From: a virus
DNA length: 64,000 bases
Virus record (IMG/VR): IMGVR_UViG_3300043788_000023
Span: 105,609 to 169,608 of that record
Reading direction: 5' to 3' (one strand)
Shown here piece after piece: positions 6,423 to 36,044 of this stretch. The position numbers were made by a program, and so were the translations under genes. Below the pieces are notes generated by a model, which was given only the letters and a program-made list of their open reading frames with translations, ran no database searches and was not told where the DNA came from. How positions within the stretch are numbered: the stretch's first letter is position 1; every line of letters begins with the position of its first letter.

Positions 6423-8228
6423 TCAATGGGACTCTACGCCAGAACCACCCGAGAACTGGGAAGCGGAGGCGGCTCTCGCTCTCGGCTTACGGGACTTCCT
6501 GATCGCCTTCAGTTTCTCTGGGATCACGGGTGCTGTGTCCTTCGTGTGCTTCATGTCGGTCTCAAAGCTCACGGAAGCCGTCACGGCACGCTTGAGGTCT
6601 CCGATGTTGATCGTCCGGTTCTTGGACTTCGCGAGCGTCATCGCCATGCGGATTGAGTTCTTGATCTGGCGACCGTTCACGTCGTAGCTGGAAAGCTCCG
6701 CAGCCCACTCCGGGTTGAGACCCGCAGCACCGAGGAGGTTCGTCCACACCTTCTGCGCTTTGCCTTCCTTCTTATAGTGCAGGGCGACGGAGATGCGGCT
6801 GTAGAACGCTTGGTCAATCTTCCGCACACGGTTGGTCGTGAGGAAGAGCACACCGTTGTGATACTCAAGCAGGCGCAGGAACACGCCCACCATTGCGTTG
6901 CGTTCAATGTTGTGCTCGTCACGCTCTTCAAGGAAGATGTCTGCCTCGTCAAGCAGGAGCACGGCGTCCCAGATGACGGCGACGTCAAGGATGTTGCGCA
7001 GCTTCTTTTCCAGCGTGTCGGTGCTGGTGCCGAGTTCGCCGACGCCAACGGAGTACAGAGGCTTGTGGAGGAGTTCTGCCACGGCTTCTGCCGAGGCGGT
7101 CTTGCCCCAGCCCGGAGGCCCGTGAAGCAGGAAGATCGTCCCGCCGCCTTTGCCCTCAATGATGTCTTGGAAGCCCGATCCGTGGAACTTGACAAGCGAG
7201 TAGATCAAGTCCTTCTTGTCTTCCTCCACGACGAGTTTGTCCCATGCGTCATCACGCCACTGGATGTCGGTCATGCCGTCAAGGTCAAGCTTGCCCCACT
7301 GCTTCACAGCGAGGGAGAACCCGTAAAGCTGCGGTAGGCAGCGCCAGTAATCCTTATCCGCGATGTCAGTGTTGGCACGAACCTGACCACCACGCTGGCG
7401 TTCCTCTTCAATCTGGACGCCGCAGCGTGCGACGCAGGAGCGCCAGACTTCAGGTTCTTGGCGTTCAAACGAGATCGGATCAATGACGACACGACCGTCA
7501 GCACGGAACGTGCGGGCGTTCCACCAGCTAGGCTGTTCCAGCGTGCCCTTGTAGGCAACGTAGGTACCCGGCTTGAGGAAGCGTGCGAACCGCTTGCCAC
7601 GTTCCGTCAAGAACGCTCTGTCCTTTTTCGTCACGGGACGCACGGGCAGGTCTGCCAGCGGTATGAGACCACGAAAGCCCGGCATTGAGTACGAGTACAA
7701 GCCCTGTGCGACCTCGCCCTTGACGGCGTGGACGACACTGATTGTGAACTCCCAGTAGACGCCCGCGAAGAAGGAGCGCTGGAGCTTCACGGACTTCACG
7801 ATGCCGCCAATCAGACCCTCGTCGTAGGTCTTCGCCACGATCTCGGTGCCAGCAGGGAACACGGTCTCTATGTCGCTCATCTCAACGAGACCCTTTTCCT
7901 TGCGTTTCTCGTAGGAGGTGACACGGCGCTGTTTCTCTTCTTGCAGGATGGTGATGAGCGTGCCCTTGGACGGGTGATTGATGTGGTTGATGAGGTCAAT
8001 ATAGTCGGCGAGAAAAGCAACGGGGTAGCGGTGTCCGAATTCCTCAACCATTTCTTCTTCAAGAGAATTGGTCAGATAGGACCAGACGTAGTCACGCATG
8101 CCGCCAAACTTCGGGTCACGCATGTCAATGAACTTGTGCCCACGGTCTTCAAGAAGCTGGAACCCGGCGTTTTTGGAAACGACGACTGGCTTCTCGTTGT
8201 AGGTGTAGTACTCGTAGCTTCTTGCCAA
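6423..8228 (-). CDS. AAA+ ATPase
   Basis: Walker A HGPPGWGKT, Walker B LLLDEAD, FLRLLEY..G.LFLTTNR, D.AF.SRI. Confidence 0.9.
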   Translation of the reverse strand: MARSYEYYTYNEKPVVVSKNAGFQLLEDRGHKFIDMRDPKFGGMRDYVWSYLTNSLEEEMVEEFGHRYPVAFLADYIDLINHINHPSKGTLITILQEEKQRRVTSYEKRKEKGLVEMSDIETVFPAGTEIVAKTYDEGLIGGIVKSVKLQRSFFAGVYWEFTISVVHAVKGEVAQGLYSYSMPGFRGLIPLADLPVRPVTKKDRAFLTERGKRFARFLKPGTYVAYKGTLEQPSWWNARTFRADGRVVIDPISFERQEPEVWRSCVARCGVQIEEERQRGGQVRANTDIADKDYWRCLPQLYGFSLAVKQWGKLDLDGMTDIQWRDDAWDKLVVEEDKKDLIYSLVKFHGSGFQDIIEGKGGGTIFLLHGPPGWGKTASAEAVAELLHKPLYSVGVGELGTSTDTLEKKLRNILDVAVIWDAVLLLDEADIFLEERDEHNIERNAMVGVFLRLLEYHNGVLFLTTNRVRKIDQAFYSRISVALHYKKEGKAQKVWTNLLGAAGLNPEWAAELSSYDVNGRQIKNSIRMAMTLAKSKNRTINIGDLKRAVTASVSFETDMKHTKDTAPVIPEKLKAIRKSRKPRARAASASQFSGGSGVESH

Positions 8229-8248
8229 AGGAGTAACCTCTCAAGTGA

Positions 8249-8277
8249 GCATAACCCCCTTGGCGGGGAACGTCAAG
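8249..8277 (-). promoter_or_regulatory. sigma70-like promoter of the AAA ATPase gene
   Basis: TTGACG-17 nt-TATGCT on the minus strand. Confidence 0.55.
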
Positions 8278-8386
8278 CGGCGGCCGTTATGGTTTATCTC
8301 CGCCCATCAGCCGGAAAAAAGACCGGAGCGCCCACGCACCTGCGAAGGCCACCCCGGTCCACATCAATGCTTCGGGCCAGTTCAAA

Positions 8387-22723: not shown

Positions 22724-23584
22724 ATGATTTCTTGGATTATCGCAGCAGCCGTAACCGCAGGAACAGGCGGAGGTTACGCCGTCTATCGTGCCAAAAAGAA
22801 AAAGCCGACCCCGGCACCCGTCCCGAAACCGACGCCACCGCCCCCACCAGCCCCCAAGCCCGTGCCTACACCTACTCCCAATCCGACGCCGACTTTTGAG
22901 GATGATTTCAGCAGCGGTACCCTGTCATCAAACTGGCGTGTATCAAACTGGACAGCGCCAGGTAACGTCGCAGGTGCGAACGTCGGCACCTTCATCCCCG
23001 CAAACGTTGATCTGAGCCAAGGTTGCCTGTGTCTCAAGTTGCAGCAGACCAAGAACGCCGATGGCTCCGTGTCCTCGGTCGGTGGTGAGATTCAGCTTAA
23101 CCAACTCTGCGGGTACGGCACGTACGTCTACGACATGCGTGCATCGTCAACGAGCGCCACGGTGTCCGGCGCAGGATCGGCCGTCAACGGTCAGATAAGC
23201 TCGGGATTCAACTACCTGCCGGATGCGAACTACAACTCAATCACCGAAATTGATGCGCCCGAGATTGAAGGGCAGCACCCGAACCAAATCTCCTACACGG
23301 TGTGGAACAACCAAGTGTCGGAAGACACCAGCGCTGTTCCGATTCTTTCGCCGGATGCCCAGTTCCACGAATACAAGTTCCAGTGGTTCGCTGGGAGCGT
23401 GAAGTTCTTCCTTGACGGTCAGCTTGTCTACACGGCTACGACGAACATCCCGGCGCAAGCCGCCTACATGATGTTCAATCATTGGGGAACGAACAGCACG
23501 AACTGGGGTGGTCTTGCGACACCGGGCGTCGACCGTTTCATGTACGTGAAGAATTTTAAGTTTTACGCGAACGCTGCTGTCTGA
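22724..23584 (+). CDS. Membrane-anchored GH16 glycoside hydrolase
   Basis: N-terminal anchor and Pro linker; EIDAPEIEG catalytic motif; FHEY...W....V.F..DG. Confidence 0.8.
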   Translation: MISWIIAAAVTAGTGGGYAVYRAKKKKPTPAPVPKPTPPPPPAPKPVPTPTPNPTPTFEDDFSSGTLSSNWRVSNWTAPGNVAGANVGTFIPANVDLSQGCLCLKLQQTKNADGSVSSVGGEIQLNQLCGYGTYVYDMRASSTSATVSGAGSAVNGQISSGFNYLPDANYNSITEIDAPEIEGQHPNQISYTVWNNQVSEDTSAVPILSPDAQFHEYKFQWFAGSVKFFLDGQLVYTATTNIPAQAAYMMFNHWGTNSTNWGGLATPGVDRFMYVKNFKFYANAAV

Positions 23585-23922
23585 AGAGTCAAGGGGTGAT
23601 GCTCTTTGACATGGCAGTTCTTGCAAAGAACTTCGCACTTCGCAATCTCGGCTAATATGCGTTCTTTACTCCAGCCGTTGTTGGCGGCCTGTGCTAGATT
23701 CGTGTCTTTCTGCGTTGGGTCTAAGTGGTGGAAATCTAAACAAGCCCAGTGGGTTTCTGGGCAACGATTACACTTCAGCGTCTTTAACTCATGAAACCAC
23801 GCCACAAGTTCGTTGCGGCGCTGGGCAATTTCAGCCCGACGCTTACGCTGGTTTTTAGCATACCAGCGCTTGTTAAAGCGACGATTATAGGTCTTCTTTT
23901 TTGCTTGGTTCTTGAATGGCAC
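23563..23922 (-). CDS. HNH endonuclease
   Basis: C..C...LDFHH.DP..K...E..KC.VLC.NCH..EH. The real start is probably GTG at 23922, because the longer ORF overlaps a tRNA. Confidence 0.85.
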   Translation of the reverse strand: MPFKNQAKKKTYNRRFNKRWYAKNQRKRRAEIAQRRNELVAWFHELKTLKCNRCPETHWACLDFHHLDPTQKDTNLAQAANNGWSKERILAEIAKCEVLCKNCHVKEHHPLTLQTAAFA

Positions 23923-23934
23923 CAAGTTTAATAC

Positions 23935-24019
23935 TGGCTGGGAAGGCAGGATTCTAACCTGCAAGCCTTGCGGCACCAGTTTCAAGGACTGGCGTGTTTA
24001 ACAATTCCACCACTTCCCA
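23935..24019 (-). tRNA. Atypical tRNA, anticodon TTG (Gln-type acceptor, long variable arm, C33)
   Basis: TGGGAAG/CTTCCCA-GCCA acceptor; CCAGT-CCTTGAA-ACTGG; variable arm GCCGCAAGGC; T loop TTAGAAT. Confidence 0.75.
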
Positions 24020-24025
24020 AGAGAT

Positions 24026-24099
24026 TGGCTGGGAGACTAGGATTCGGACCTAGACTTCTTGGTTCAGAGCCAAGCGTGTTGCCGTTACACTATCTCCCA
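24026..24099 (-). tRNA. tRNA-Gln(CTG)
   Basis: TGGGAGA...CTTGG-CTCTGAA-CCAAG...TCTCCCAGCCA. Confidence 0.92.
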
Positions 24100-24108
24100 A
24101 AAGAAAGT

Positions 24109-24182
24109 TGGCTGGGAGACCTGGATTCGAACCAGGATAGCAGGGTCCAAAGTCCTGCGTCCTACCGTTGGACGATCTCCCA
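24109..24182 (-). tRNA. tRNA-Gln(TTG)
   Basis: TGGGAGA...CAGGA-CTTTGGA-CCCTG...GGTTCGAATCC...CCCAGCCA. Confidence 0.92.
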
Positions 24183-24191
24183 AAAGAAAAT

Positions 24192-24267
24192 TGGAGCTAC
24201 CAGAGGGCATCGAACCCCCAACCTCCGCATTACAGGTGCGGCGCTCTGCCAATTGAGCTATGGTAGC
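24192..24267 (-). tRNA. tRNA-Thr(TGT), C33 variant
   Basis: GCTACCA...CCGCA-CCTGTAA-TGCGG...TGGTAGCTCCA. Confidence 0.9.
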
Positions 24268-24276
24268 GAAAATTTT

Positions 24277-24513
24277 TTACTTGCAGCAGCGCCCGTTCAT
24301 CGGATGCTGGGCTTCAGGCACCGGGTAGACCGTTGCGCCCTTGTGCTCCTCGCAGGGCCAAACGTGTTCGCTTCCGTCTCGTGCCAACCACTTGATGCCG
24401 TACTGCTCCAGCGGATTGACGACCGCCTCTACCGCCAGTTCCACGTCCCCGATCACGACCTTCTTGCCCATGAGCAGGTTCATCGCCTGCTCGCCGTTCA
24501 ACTTGATTTCCAT
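24277..24513 (-). CDS. Small hypothetical protein embedded in the tRNA operon
   Basis: MEIKLNGEQ... 78 aa with a GGGAG SD; fills the gap between two Thr tRNAs. Confidence 0.6.
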   Translation of the reverse strand: MEIKLNGEQAMNLLMGKKVVIGDVELAVEAVVNPLEQYGIKWLARDGSEHVWPCEEHKGATVYPVPEAQHPMNGRCCK

Positions 24514-24528
24514 TTCATCTCCCGAACT

Positions 24529-24604
24529 TGGAGCTACCGGGTGGATTCGAACCACCGACCTCCCCCTTACCAAGGGGGCATTCTACCAACTGAACTACGG
24601 CAGC
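24529..24604 (-). tRNA. tRNA-Thr(GGT)
   Basis: GCTGCCG...CCCCC-TTGGTAA-GGGGG...CGGTAGCTCCA. Confidence 0.93.
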
Positions 24605-24615
24605 AAACTTAAACT

Positions 24616-24691
24616 TGGAGCTACCGGAGGGCCTCGAACCCCCGACCTCCGCATTACGGGTGCGGCGCTCTACCAACTGAGCTACGGTAGC
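24616..24691 (-). tRNA. tRNA-Thr(CGT), C33 variant
   Basis: GCTACCG...CCGCA-CCCGTAA-TGCGG...CGGTAGCTCCA. Confidence 0.9.
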
Positions 24692-24702
24692 ACTACAAAA
24701 AT

Positions 24703-24777
24703 TGGTACCCATGGAGGGATTCGAACCCCCATAACACGCCTATCGAGCGTGCGTCCTAGCCGTTGGACGACACGGGT
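24703..24777 (-). tRNA. Atypical tRNA with GAT (Ile) anticodon, C33/G38 and a Glu/Gln-like D arm
   Basis: ACCCGTG/CATGGGT-ACCA; TCGTCCAACGGCTAGGAC; CACGC-TCGATAG-GCGTG. Confidence 0.75.
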
Positions 24778-24789
24778 AAAACAAAATCG

Positions 24790-24941
24790 TGGTGGAGCGT
24801 GCGGGATTCGAACCCGCTTCGGTACCAAACGATCTCAAGCCCATCCAGCTTCGGATTTTTGCCCGTCGCCTTCAACTGCTCGCTTGCGATCCGGGGAGTC
24901 GAACCCCGCGTGAGTCGTCGCTCTAGCCTCCAAGCCGCCCC
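24790..24941 (-). ncRNA. 152-nt tRNA-like RNA with an Ala-type G3-U70 acceptor and two T-loop arms
   Basis: 5' GGGGCG pairs with CGCTCC-ACCA; internal GCGGGGTTCGACTCCCCG and terminal GCGGGTTCGAATCCCGC. Confidence 0.65.
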
Positions 24942-24950
24942 ACAGAAATT

Positions 24951-25026
24951 TGGTAGGCGCGACTGGGATCGAACCAGTGACCTCAGTCTTATCAGGACTG
25001 CGCTCTGCCAACTGAGCTACGCGCCT
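24951..25026 (-). tRNA. tRNA-Ile(GAT)
   Basis: AGGCGCG...CAGTC-CTGATAA-GACTG...CGCGCCTACCA; canonical cloverleaf. Confidence 0.95.
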
Positions 25027-25039
25027 TCAAAACGTGCCT

Positions 25040-25077
25040 AAAAACAAAAAAGCCGACCACTTGTTGCTTGGTCGGCT
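25040..25077 (-). terminator. Attenuator terminator upstream of the tRNA operon
   Basis: AGCCGACCA-AGCAACAAG-TGGTCGGCT followed by TTTTTGTTTTT, just before the first tRNA. Confidence 0.85.
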
Positions 25078-25105
25078 GCTAACGTCCTGAATTTGCTGGG
25101 CTTAC

Positions 25106-25195
25106 TTAGTCTTTGAAGCCCTCAGACACGTCAACGGACCGACCGCATGTAATTCGTTGCGTCGTCGTAGTTCGCGTTGTAGGTGTCTGGTTCAT
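25106..25195 (-). CDS. Thr/Gln/Ile-rich attenuator leader peptide (MNQTPTTRTTTTQRITCGRSVDVSEGFKD)
   Basis: 29 codons, 8 Thr among the first 16; overlaps the 5' strand of an antiterminator hairpin. Confidence 0.8.
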   Translation of the reverse strand: MNQTPTTRTTTTQRITCGRSVDVSEGFKD

Positions 25196-25211
25196 GATCT
25201 TTTCTTTGTGT

Positions 25212-25246
25212 TGGCTGGGAGTCTCCGGTTTTACCAAAGACTCCCA
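25212..25246 (-). ncRNA. CCA-ended minihelix with a tRNA-Gln-like acceptor
   Basis: TGGGAGTCTTTGGT-AAA-ACCGGAGACTCCCA-GCCA. Confidence 0.65.
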
Positions 25247-25248
25247 AC

Positions 25249-25282
25249 TGGAGCCGAAACTCAGCTTTCGCTAACCTTCGGC
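25249..25282 (-). ncRNA. CCA-ended minihelix with a tRNA-Thr-like acceptor
   Basis: GCCGAAG-G-TTAGC-GAAA-GCTGA-G-TTTCGGC-TCCA. Confidence 0.65.
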
Positions 25283-25284
25283 AT

Positions 25285-25318
25285 TGGTGGAGAACCTCAG
25301 ATTTCGCTGCGATTCTCC
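25285..25318 (-). ncRNA. CCA-ended minihelix (A73, identity unclear)
   Basis: GGAGAATC-G-CAG-CGAAAT-CTG-A-GGTTCTCC-ACCA. Confidence 0.6.
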
Positions 25319-25327
25319 GTCTTGATT

Positions 25328-25356
25328 ATATTACTGGAAGTCCAGAAATATGTCAA
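25328..25356 (-). promoter_or_regulatory. sigma70 promoter of the minihelix-leader-tRNA transcript
   Basis: TTGACA-17 nt-TAATAT, with an overlapping TATAAT 3 nt further on. Confidence 0.75.
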
Positions 25357-25375
25357 GGTTATTTTCGCAGCGCCT

Positions 25376-25579
25376 TTAGACGGCTGTGACGCGTTCGGCT
25401 TGGAGACCCTTGGGTCCCTTGACCACTTCAAACTCAACTGCTGCGCCTTCGTCAAGGCTCTTGTAGCCCTCGCTCTGGATCGCCGAGAAATGTACGAATA
25501 CATCCTCGCCAGTCTGACGGGTGATAAAGCCATAGCCCTTTGCTGCGTTAAACCACTTCACGGTACCTTGTTCTGCCAT
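25376..25579 (-). CDS. cspA: Cold-shock protein
   Basis: [29 protein letters not shown]. Confidence 0.97.
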
Positions 25580-25688: not shown

Positions 25689-26590
25689 TCAAGCCTTGAT
25701 TAGCGGTAGTTCCTCGGGCATGATCCCGAAGGTGTCCCACCAGAACTCGGGCTGTTTGTCCCCGTTGTTCCGAAAATAGCGTCGGCCTTCACGCAGGGAC
25801 TTCTCCATGCGACCACGTTCCCCATCCATCCAGCCCATAAACGAACATTCCACGCCCTGCGGGTTGAGACGCATGAATCGCCGGATCAGGCGACGGCAGA
25901 CGTAGTTCCTGCCCCTGTTGCCCGGCACGATGTCCTGCTCGCGGAACACGCACAGGGTGCGGAAATGGTCGCGGGACACCGGGTCTAGGTCCTGCCGGAA
26001 GAGGCTCGTCTCGTCCACGCGGCTTTTGCCTTCCACGATCTGAAGCATGCGCTCGTAGCCGAAGCCCACGTCCACGGAGTGCCCCATCGGGTTCACGAGA
26101 TTGCCTACTTCAAGCCCCTCCGGCGTGAACAGTTCCGAGCAGTAGCCGCCCACGGTGCCGTCCGACCAGACGCAATCCGGGTCGTGGCACACGGGGAAGA
26201 CTCCGTTCCAGTGCCGCTCAAAGCCGGACTCCGGGTGGATGTTTACGTGGGAGATCGGGATGCCGAGGTCGCGGACGATGCCCGTCCACATGTCGCAGTG
26301 CCGCTGGTAGTCGTCCGTGCCGAAGCCGAAGCTACCGACCATCTGGAAGAAGGTCAGGTGCGTGCCGTCGCCGACCTCGTCGATGTCATTGGTGCGGACG
26401 CAGTGCTGGATGTTGCCGTGGCTGGTGCCGTCCGGTGTCTGGAACCTTGGCTTGAGTGGCTGCATCCCCGCGCTGATGAAAAGCGTGGTGGGGTCGTTCT
26501 CGGGGATTATGTTGGTGCTTGGTTCAAAGGGGAGACCGTTCTCGCTGAAGTGGCGTCGAAGGGTCTCGTTTAGGCGTCCCGCTGTGACAT
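25689..26590 (-). CDS. alaS: Truncated alanyl-tRNA synthetase (catalytic domain only); N-terminus out of frame with the SD-equipped ATG
   Basis: [69 protein letters not shown]. No editing or C-Ala domains. Confidence 0.8.
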
Positions 26591-32697: not shown

Positions 32698-32782
32698 TGG
32701 TACGCGGGGGAGGAATCGAACCTCCGACCTCTCCTCATCAAAAGGGGAGCGCTCTGGTACAACCCAACTGAGCTACCCGCGT
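32698..32782 (-). tRNA. Atypical tRNA or pseudo-tRNA (enlarged D loop, ambiguous anticodon loop CTTTTGATG)
   Basis: ACGCGGG/CCCGCGT-ACCA acceptor; GGAGG-TTCGATT-CCTCC T arm. Confidence 0.65.
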
Positions 32783-32784
32783 AT

Positions 32785-32889
32785 TGGAGCGCCTGGGGGG
32801 ATTTGAACCCCCGACCAACGGATTATTTCTCCGCTGCTCTTGCGAGGTCGGTTTTAGAGACCGCCGCTCTACCACTGAGCTACAGGCGC
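32785..32889 (-). tRNA. 105-nt tRNA with a CTA (amber) anticodon and two extra hairpins
   Basis: GCGCCTG/CAGGCGC-TCCA; CGGT-CTCTAAA-ACCG; insert CTCGCAAGAG and GCGGA-GAAATAA-TCCGT. Confidence 0.75.
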
Positions 32890-32894
32890 AAACT

Positions 32895-32969
32895 TGGCAC
32901 CCCCGGTGGGATTTTTACCCACATGCGCGGCTTTAGAGGCCACTGCTCTTGCTGTTGAGCTACGGGAGT
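32895..32969 (-). tRNA. Amber suppressor tRNA (CTA) with a degenerate T loop
   Basis: ACTCCCG/CGGGGGT-GCCA; GTGGC-CTCTAAA-GCCGC; T loop TAAAAAT. Confidence 0.75.
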
Positions 32970-32970
32970 A

Positions 32971-33037
32971 TGGTGTACGCATCTTATCGCACCCACGAGG
33001 GCGTAAGGGAGACTTTCTTTCCGGGTGCGCGGCGTAC
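32971..33037 (-). ncRNA. Candidate CCA-ended hairpin RNA
   Basis: GTACGC...CGCACCC...GGGTGCG...GCGTAC-ACCA between two suppressor tRNAs. Confidence 0.4.
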
Positions 33038-33095
33038 CTGCGATTTTTCCCGTCAGTCGTCTCTGCGAAATATCGTTCGGTGTCTAATACTGGTG

Positions 33096-33174
33096 TGGTG
33101 GGGTCGGCGGGATTTGAACCCGGCGATCAGGGTTTTAGAGACCCCTGCTTTGGGCCAGACTAAGCTACGACCCC
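33096..33174 (-). tRNA. Amber suppressor tRNA (CTA)
   Basis: GGGGTCG/CGACCCC-ACCA; GGGGT-CTCTAAA-ACCCT; GGGTTCAAATCCC. Confidence 0.85.
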
Positions 33175-35438: not shown

Positions 35439-35729
35439 GTCACCACGGCTCAGGGGATTTTCCGGCGCTCATCCTCAGCATTGTTCCCGACGCCAAGGTT
35501 TGCCTATTCTTCTTTCGGCGCAATCGCACCGCTGTCCCCGAGTTGAAGAACGTCCAAGCAGCGGGGGTCAATTCCCCCTTCAAGACAAGCGCAGGTGAGT
35601 TTTACGTCACCTCTCCCCGCAAGCCCTGTCACACTTGGCAAAGTCTAGTCTCCCGTAGGTTTACTTTCGGAACCGATGACGTCTGCTGCCCACGGACACT
35701 GGAGCCTTCTGTATGATACCACCAGAAAC

Positions 35730-35753
35730 AAAAAAGCCCAGCCGAAGCTGGGC
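35730..35753 (-). terminator. Terminator of the tmRNA gene
   Basis: GCCCAGC-TTCG-GCTGGGC-TTTTTT. Confidence 0.85.
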
Positions 35754-35754
35754 G

Positions 35755-36044
35755 AATTTTGTGGTGTTGAGGATCAGAGACACCGTCTCTGGGCACGCAG
35801 GTTTTTAAGCTGCGGCTGCCATTGCCATTGCCTTTGGAGCAGTGACGTTTAGTTGTTTCCATCCTGATTTTCGAGGGTATGGTACCTCGGGTCGCTAGCT
35901 CCGTCCTCGCACGTCTTCCGTCGAAACCGATTACCCCCGCAGTGGTGGAGGTAGAGGGAATTGAACCCTCGTCCGAAAAGACTGTCTGGTGCCTTTTACC
36001 CCCACACTTACCCTTCGGCAGTCTACAGGGGCTTACGACCATCT
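35755..36044 (-). ncRNA. ssrA: Circularly permuted (two-piece) tmRNA
   Basis: The acceptor piece ends GGACGAGGGTTCAATTCCCTCTACCTCCACCA (35943). After a 4-nt spacer comes GGGGGTAATCGGTTTCGAC (35938), giving G3-U70. The tag frame ends ...VTAPKAMAMAAAA-TAA (35805). Confidence 0.9.

Follow-up and report, generated by a model that had tools for sequence, protein, structure and literature searches.

A probable leader-peptide attenuator ahead of a phage tRNA array, with leader codons matched to the tRNAs that follow

Results

A Thr-rich leader lies between a promoter and an array of Ile, Thr and Gln tRNA genes

The DNA analyzed here (the window, 64,000 nucleotides) forms the end of a virus record that consists of one contig (169,608 bases), IMG/VR record IMGVR_UViG_3300043788_000023, from a large phage of a soil/peat clade. 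This 169.6-kb genome possesses one cassette, located on the minus strand of the window, in which a promoter, a short open reading frame (ORF) and an intrinsic terminator precede a group of tRNA genes. The cassette is most probably a ribosome-mediated (leader-peptide) attenuator, with the phage's own Ile, Thr and Gln tRNAs as the regulated genes. An earlier note on the same DNA, made from the sequence alone, had described the promoter, a 29-codon ORF with Thr, Gln and Ile codons and, after the terminator, tRNAs for Thr (TGT/CGT/GGT), Gln (CTG/TTG) and Ile (GAT), and had proposed that the leader codons are those read by these tRNAs. The promoter and all of these tRNAs are present, and the coordinates and codon counts given for the ORF are all correct.

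The promoter is of the sigma-70 type (TTGACA-17-TAATAT, 25328..25356, minus strand, 10 of 12 matches), and the same promoter design precedes the leaders in the related contigs L001, L005, L014, L025, L026, L029 and L030. No sigma-70-like promoter was found within 23500-25100, the region from the terminator to the end of the array, and the tRNA array should therefore depend on readthrough. The array consists of eight tRNA genes, all on the minus strand. The first, tRNA-Ile (GAT, 24951..25026), begins 14 nucleotides (nt) past the U-tract of the terminator and is followed by a second copy of tRNA-Ile (GAT, 24703..24777), by tRNA-Thr with the anticodons CGT (24616-24691), GGT (24529-24604) and TGT (24192..24267) and by tRNA-Gln with the anticodons TTG (24109-24182), CTG (24026-24099) and again TTG (23935-24019).

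The leader ORF (25106..25195, minus strand) consists of 29 codons and a TAA stop codon and is located between the promoter and the tRNA genes. Its regulatory codon run, designated region 1 (codons 3-16, 25148..25189, minus strand), contains Gln, eight Thr, a further Gln and Ile, with Pro and two Arg codons interspersed. Among codons 2-16, 11 of 15 are cognate to the array, namely Thr ACA (three), ACG (four) and ACU (one), Gln CAG and CAA, and Ile AUU, and each of the six anticodon species of the array has a cognate codon in the leader (6/6). When all 734 ATG-initiated ORFs of the 169.6-kb genome that span 20-60 codons were ranked by this measure, the leader came first and the runner-up reached 8 cognate codons; against a genome background of 16% the binomial probability of the match is P = 1.3e-6. 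Codons and tRNAs correspond in the way that the earlier note had read them.

The leader RNA is predicted to fold into alternative terminator and antiterminator hairpins

The intrinsic terminator (3:4) is located at 25040..25077 (minus strand), before the first tRNA gene, and has a GC-rich stem of 9 base pairs (bp), a loop of 9 nt and a U-tract (-15.2 kcal/mol, z = -3.4); a simple terminator scan had missed it because of the length of this loop. Its 5' arm is claimed by a second and mutually exclusive structure, the antiterminator (2:3, 25070..25144, minus strand), in which codons 18-27 of the leader pair with the spacer and the terminator 5' arm through the segments GGUCGGU/GCCGACC, GUUGACGU/ACGUUAGC, CUGA/UCAG and GGGCUU/AAGCCC. 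This hairpin is the minimum free energy structure of 25153-25070 (-32.8 kcal/mol, z = -4.2), and 0 of 200 shuffled sequences folded as well. Both the terminator and the long hairpin that sequesters its 5' arm had been recognized in the earlier note and were recovered by folding. Absent from that note is a further hairpin (1:2, 25123..25189, minus strand, -21.8 kcal/mol, z = -2.3), in which the Thr-codon stretch, from CAGACAC onward, pairs with region 2, which ends in GUGUCUG. Folding also gave an apical hairpin (25098..25121, minus strand) that carries the stop codon (25108-25106) in its loop. With the 1:2 hairpin and the stop codon in the apical loop, the predicted switch is of the classical four-region design (1:2, 2:3 and 3:4), and the likeness to attenuation of the thr/ilv/his type that had been suggested for this locus extends in the models to the full set of pairings and the terminator.

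The calculated hairpin energies fit the classical attenuation model. The 2:3 hairpin (-32.8 kcal/mol) is favoured over the apical hairpin together with 3:4 (-25.3 kcal/mol), and 1:2 together with the apical hairpin and 3:4 (-48.3 kcal/mol) is favoured over 2:3 alone (-34.0 kcal/mol). The leader was folded both with and without a ribosome constraint, as had been proposed earlier. When the ribosome was imposed as a mask on the whole sequence, region 2 paired spuriously with bases past the U-tract, a pairing absent in the homologue L001, and truncated transcripts were used instead. In the models a ribosome positioned at the stop codon lets the terminator form and ribosomes stalled upstream, at codons 4-12, leave region 2 free.

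Neither the window, searched against Rfam at gathering thresholds, nor 23800-25500, searched at E up to 5, matched a leader, T-box or riboswitch family; the only matches within the leader, to Qrr, PhrS and cspA, were at chance level, far below the Rfam threshold, and were discarded. Contigs assembled from four RNA libraries of four metatranscriptome studies cover the leader (25084-25290, 25084-25420, 25087-25239 and 25070-25475). None of the four spans the terminator; they are assemblies of 2-6x depth from relatives in which RNA ends are not visible, and their breaks at the terminator could stem from strain variation in the terminator loop, so that they speak neither for nor against the switch.

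Leader, switch and array are conserved in homologous contigs

Homologues were collected by a neighbour-gene search and two pattern scans, and matches that were due to chance or to coding sequence were discarded. The same cassette was found in 12 further distinct contigs, which makes 13 with the window: L001 (identical to L002 and L009), L004 (identical to L013, from a 332-kb phage), L005 (identical to L023, from a 463-kb phage), L006, L008, L010, L012, L014, L017, L019, L024 and L037. The pattern matches L003, L007, L011/L016, L015, L018, L020-L022, L036 and L038-L044 proved to be coding or unrelated sequence and were rejected. An exact 35-nt leader pattern, which included two window-specific bases, matched 0 viral contigs, and blastn of the leader against deposited phages (50,697 records) gave 0 matches and hence no cultured relative.

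In all 13 contigs the ORF is open (29-31 codons) and terminates within the apical hairpin, and individual folds of all 13 gave the 1:2 hairpin (-21 to -29 kcal/mol), the apical hairpin with 3:4 (-25 to -32 kcal/mol) and the 2:3 hairpin (-30 to -39 kcal/mol). The leader and its alternative hairpin are thereby retained at every homologous locus, a point on which the earlier note had asked the idea to be judged. A tRNA-Ile (GAT) is the first tRNA gene after the terminator in 13 of 13, and tRNA-Thr CGT/GGT/TGT and tRNA-Gln TTG/CTG then follow in every homologue whose contig is sufficiently long. The contig L037 was obtained with a pattern that left the Thr run unconstrained. Compared with the window, four of its Thr codons differ solely in the third base, and at one position Gln, also an amino acid of the array, stands in place of Thr, suggesting that selection acts on what is decoded and not on the RNA sequence.

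Covariation, which had also been put forward as a check, was counted in an alignment of 12 sequences (A1). In the antiterminator 92.5% of the cells are paired and three pairs are changed on both sides, with 0-23 of 500 shuffles reaching the observed measures; in the terminator stem 98% of the cells are paired and again three pairs are changed on both sides. One base of the terminator 5' arm covaries with both of its alternative partners, in region 2 (UA in ten sequences, GC in one) and in region 4 (AU in ten, CG in two). A change from A to G in region 2 of L001 and L014 is accompanied by the compensating change in region 3 (AU in nine, GC in two). Compensatory changes are thus found in both competing structures, and as the depth of the family is modest, the covariation is supportive and not conclusive.

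In two distant relatives, leaders are spelled in the codons of their own arrays

The 463-kb and 332-kb phages (G001 and G002, respectively) are distant relatives that carry 69 and 49 tRNAs in arrays grouped by amino acid, and nearly every array is preceded by a promoter designed like that of the window, a short ORF and a terminator. Ten cassettes, six in G001 and four in G002, represent the six classes Ser; Trp/His/Arg/Asn/Gln/Lys; Val/Gly/Ala/Asp/Cys/Glu; Tyr/Leu/Phe; Pro/Met/Phe; and Ile/Thr/Gln, and each leader is written in codons that its own array reads. Ahead of the Ser array (GCU, GGA, UGA and CGA, with Leu UAA), nine consecutive leader codons are drawn from UCC, UCA, UCG, UCU, AGU, AGC and UUA. 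The Trp/His/Arg/Asn/Gln/Lys leader has a run with one each of CGA, CGG, CGU and CGC together with UGG, CAU, CAC, AAU, AAA, AAG and CAG, and the Tyr/Leu/Phe leader contains CUA, CUG, CUC, CUU, UUG, UAU and UUC; the Val/Gly/Ala/Asp/Cys/Glu, Pro/Met/Phe and Ile/Thr/Gln leaders are likewise matched to their own arrays. The Lys/suppressor arrays at the start of L027 and L034 showed no leader ahead of them.

Leaders and arrays were permuted and scored by two measures, the cognate fraction of leader codons and the fraction of array anticodons sampled, which agreed. The true assignment was the best of 720 permutations for G001 and the best of 24 for G002. Of 75 anticodon species, 70 (93%) are sampled by the leader of their own array, and the share in mismatched pairs is 40%. 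The codon content of the leaders in related phages does track the content of the tRNA arrays, as the earlier note had wished to see examined.

In seven of the eight cassettes with a clear terminator, the 3' portion of the leader coding sequence pairs with the terminator 5' arm, and a ribosome that has reached the stop codon is predicted to release this arm. The automatic terminator parse missed the Ser cassette L025, whose terminator is plain. In the 463-kb phage, the Ile/Thr/Gln cassette (L027, approximately 2430-2530) and the Val/Gly/Ala/Asp/Cys/Glu cassette (L028, approximately 1090-1140) have an identical 17-nt spacer, GAAAUCAGAGACUUCCG, before the terminator, and the spacer of L037 is nearly identical to it. 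This shared spacer suggests that the cassettes are paralogous copies that have been re-spelled for each array.

5' UTR hairpins, further elements of the array and neighbouring genes

The leader RNA of 296 nt is highly structured (z = -7.05). In its 5' untranslated region (UTR), three hairpins (25318-25285, 25282-25249 and 25246-25212, minus strand) each end in an N-CCA tail; with stems of 12-13 bp and short GAAA-type loops they resemble minihelices of a tRNA acceptor/T-arm, and the third terminates in CCCAGCCA, as do the downstream Gln tRNAs. Comparison of nine close homologues shows covarying stems with retained NCCA tails. L010 and L012 have two such hairpins, and L004, L005 and L037 have none. 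The three N-CCA hairpins are part of the transcript and lie outside the conserved switch.

Within the array, an element of about 150 nt (24786-24941, minus strand) separates the two Ile tRNAs. It has acceptor-like pairing of its ends with a G:U third pair, a T-arm and a 3' A-CCA, and gives a weak match to transfer-messenger RNA (tmRNA; 23.8 bits, with a cut-off of 47); it may be an Ala-type tRNA-like RNA or a mini-tmRNA. The spacing from one Ile tRNA to the next varies from 154 to 449 nt among the homologues. A small ORF coding for a protein of 78 amino acids, without a Pfam match, is located between Thr-GGT and Thr-TGT (24277-24516, minus strand).

Upstream of the cassette lie a gene for a fragment related to alanyl-tRNA synthetase (AlaRS) and a cold-shock-domain gene. 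The AlaRS-like protein (258 amino acids, 25689-26465, minus strand) matches class II AlaRS (PF01411) in its catalytic core alone (E = 1.8e-16) and is 81% identical to its counterpart in L001; its gene adjoins the G3:U70-type RNA at 24786-24941 and the CCA-ended hairpins. All 11 tRNAs and the permuted tmRNA of the 169.6-kb genome fall inside the window. A second tRNA array (32698-33174, minus strand) comprises three tRNAs with the anticodon CUA (amber suppressors), one of them 102 nt long, and a tRNA-Glu (CUC); no leader ORF was found ahead of it. The gene directly upstream of this second array has an in-frame TAG as its third codon, and the permuted tmRNA (35714-36036, minus strand) is located nearby.

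Discussion

How the attenuator would work

Host RNA polymerase would initiate at the promoter and transcribe the leader, and a ribosome would translate the 29-codon ORF behind it. When cognate aminoacyl-tRNAs are plentiful, the ribosome would reach the stop codon in the apical loop and occlude region 2, so that 3:4 can form and transcription would end 14 nt short of the first tRNA. When Thr or Gln codons (codons 3-13) are decoded slowly, the ribosome would stall on region 1 and region 2 would pair with region 3; this 2:3 pairing would sequester the terminator 5' arm, and the polymerase would continue into the array and supply the limiting tRNAs. If no ribosome is loaded, 1:2 and 3:4 are expected to form and transcription to terminate. 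Translation of the leader, its coupling to transcription and the direction and size of the response are what we infer in this scheme. As the output would be the very tRNAs that are sensed, the circuit would let the product feed back, directly and negatively, on the tRNA supply of the phage, and since synonymous codons are sampled for each isoacceptor, tRNA species rather than amino acids would be sensed.

A broader and tentative proposal, which we consider less likely than not, is that the phages exert closed-loop, modular control over a private tRNA pool. Each array would have its own sampler ORF with about one codon per isoacceptor, any single shortage would open the array, the cassettes would be re-spelled paralogues, and the system would double as a reply to defences that destroy tRNAs.

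Several observations weigh against the attenuator as described. A modelled stall at codon 15 (Ile) or 16 (the last Thr) covers GGUCGGU, which is predicted to let the terminator form. Of the sensing of Thr, Gln and Ile that had been proposed in the earlier note, the Thr and Gln part agrees with the models, as stalls at codons 4-12 free region 2 and these codons are well placed; the Ile part is not, because codon 15 lies too near to region 2, and sensing of Ile is doubtful. The regulatory run also includes two invariant Arg CGA codons, and the phage encodes no Arg tRNA. The homologues are for the most part close relatives. Eleven of the 12 came from a pattern in which the Thr-run peptide was obligatory, so that the conservation of Thr codons in those 11 is not independent evidence. 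The 1:2 hairpin, with 87.8% of its cells paired in A1, shows almost no covariation. The Shine-Dalgarno sequence before the leader AUG is weak (AAGAUC/GAGAUC), and in L005 (8440-8490) and L037 (9195-9237) the -10 box lies just 7-10 nt from the AUG, suggesting leaderless or almost leaderless translation there. The terminator and the first tRNA of L005 are separated by two small protein ORFs without a Pfam match (7900-8310); small ORFs within or ahead of tRNA arrays would be co-regulated by the attenuator. Finally, the two Pro/Met/Phe cassettes (L030, approximately 440-640, and L031, approximately 6800-6935), in whose leaders Met, Pro and Phe codons alternate, have no canonical terminator (GC stem and U-tract) before the first tRNA and may use a different switch.

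Alternative explanations

If the terminator merely ended a short transcript linked to csp or a small RNA, the ORF would be incidental and the tRNAs would be made by constitutive leak-through. The strong structure of the leader RNA, the lack of a strong Shine-Dalgarno sequence and, as a weak hint, the RNA-library contigs that stop short of the terminator are in keeping with such an arrangement. However, first place among 734 ORFs for cognate codons would not be expected of an incidental ORF, nor would an open frame in 13 homologues with only synonymous changes in its Thr run, nor re-spelling for six classes of array, and in L004, L005 and L037 the ORF and the switch remain while the upstream hairpins are missing. 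This explanation is hardly credible, and the permutation tests effectively exclude it. Control might instead be exerted through RNA processing or Rho, with translation of the leader deciding on cleavage or stability of the precursor, for example by way of the CCA-ended hairpins and tRNA-processing enzymes. The Pro/Met/Phe cassettes that lack a canonical terminator and the three NCCA-ended hairpins upstream of the leader in the close clade would suit this possibility, but a strong GC stem with a U-tract overlaps the antiterminator in 11 of the 13 cassettes examined (Ile/Thr/Gln-type and other) and the N-CCA hairpins are dispensable in distant homologues, which makes processing or Rho a very improbable basis of control.

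Other explanations accept that the leader is translated and differ in what it would report. In the thr, ilv, his and trp leader attenuators the signal is the charged fraction of tRNA, and by analogy the phage leader could report amino-acid starvation and tune tRNA synthesis to host nutrition, akin to stringent control. Such a response would be futile, as extra tRNA cannot relieve a shortage of amino acids, and only a sensor of tRNA species would require ACA, ACG and ACU for the three Thr tRNAs and both CAA and CAG for the two Gln tRNAs; starvation sensing is accordingly an unlikely function. More plausible, and still on the unlikely side, is that the same device serves counter-defence, remaining off until anticodon nucleases or other tRNA-damaging defences deplete the Thr, Gln and Ile tRNAs of the host and then turning on replacements, which the earlier note had offered as an example. 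A sensor of decoding speed would react if host tRNAs were lost, the leader has one or more codons for every isoacceptor of the array, as the logic of replacement requires, and the phage is heavy in translation parts (the AlaRS-like fragment, tmRNA and suppressor tRNAs). On the other hand, no sequence feature indicates a defence trigger, and the cassettes of G001 and G002 span nearly all amino acids, for which general homeostasis is a better fit than a reply to one nuclease. Product feedback of a simple kind and a trigger by cleavage of host tRNAs account for the data equally well.

Significance

If tRNA genes are indeed the targets of such an attenuator, the ribosome would report, for each isoacceptor separately, on how much of the product is available. 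Such a circuit touches on the long-standing question of why phages carry tRNAs and when these are expressed, and it predicts expression that is driven by demand instead of being constitutive. It would also explain the grouping of tRNA genes by amino acid in large phages, whose arrays may be regulatory units, and it would offer compact, re-spellable sensors for individual tRNA species that could be of use in synthetic biology.

Comparison with known systems

Leader-peptide attenuation is known from amino-acid biosynthesis and from a few aminoacyl-tRNA synthetase operons, where the ribosome reports amino-acid supply. A full-text literature search found no published attenuation or leader peptide ahead of tRNA genes or phage tRNA arrays, in agreement with the earlier note, which had known of no described attenuator of a phage tRNA array; most subscription journals lie outside the coverage of this search, and its outcome is absence of evidence only.

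T-box riboswitches resemble the phage device as modelled in that they respond to the state of one specific tRNA by a choice between terminator and antiterminator. In contrast, a T-box binds the uncharged tRNA without translation, whereas the phage device has a conserved ORF and no T-box match. The pheM-pheST system shares with the phage cassette a leader-peptide attenuator acting on a component of the translation apparatus, and differs in its target, which is a bacterial, protein-coding aminoacyl-tRNA synthetase operon and not a set of non-coding phage tRNA genes. In ilvGMEDA (Ile/Leu/Val) and ilvBN (Val/Leu), one leader samples several amino acids, as the phage leader would do for Thr, Gln and perhaps Ile; this multivalent sampling is most striking in the Trp/His/Arg/Asn/Gln/Lys and Val/Gly/Ala/Asp/Cys/Glu cassettes of the relatives. 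The ilv leaders use runs of codons for the products of a shared pathway, whereas the set of amino acids in the phage leader is defined by the downstream tRNAs and synonymous codons are provided for each anticodon.

A close counterpart in layout is the leader of the thr operon (thrL) of Escherichia coli and Salmonella, in which stalling at the regulatory codons favours the antiterminator. Both have a short Thr-rich ORF with Ile codons, an intrinsic terminator and alternative hairpins 1:2, 2:3 and 3:4, which in the phage leader are predicted by folding. There is no homology in sequence or structure (no Rfam leader match at E up to 5), and the phage leader adds Gln codons and one codon per isoacceptor. 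Whereas thrL controls biosynthetic enzymes, the phage device would control tRNA genes, so that the molecule sensed is the product. Attenuation by a leader peptide is thus itself a known mechanism, and the comparison supports as new its application to phage tRNA arrays with codon matching at the level of isoacceptors.

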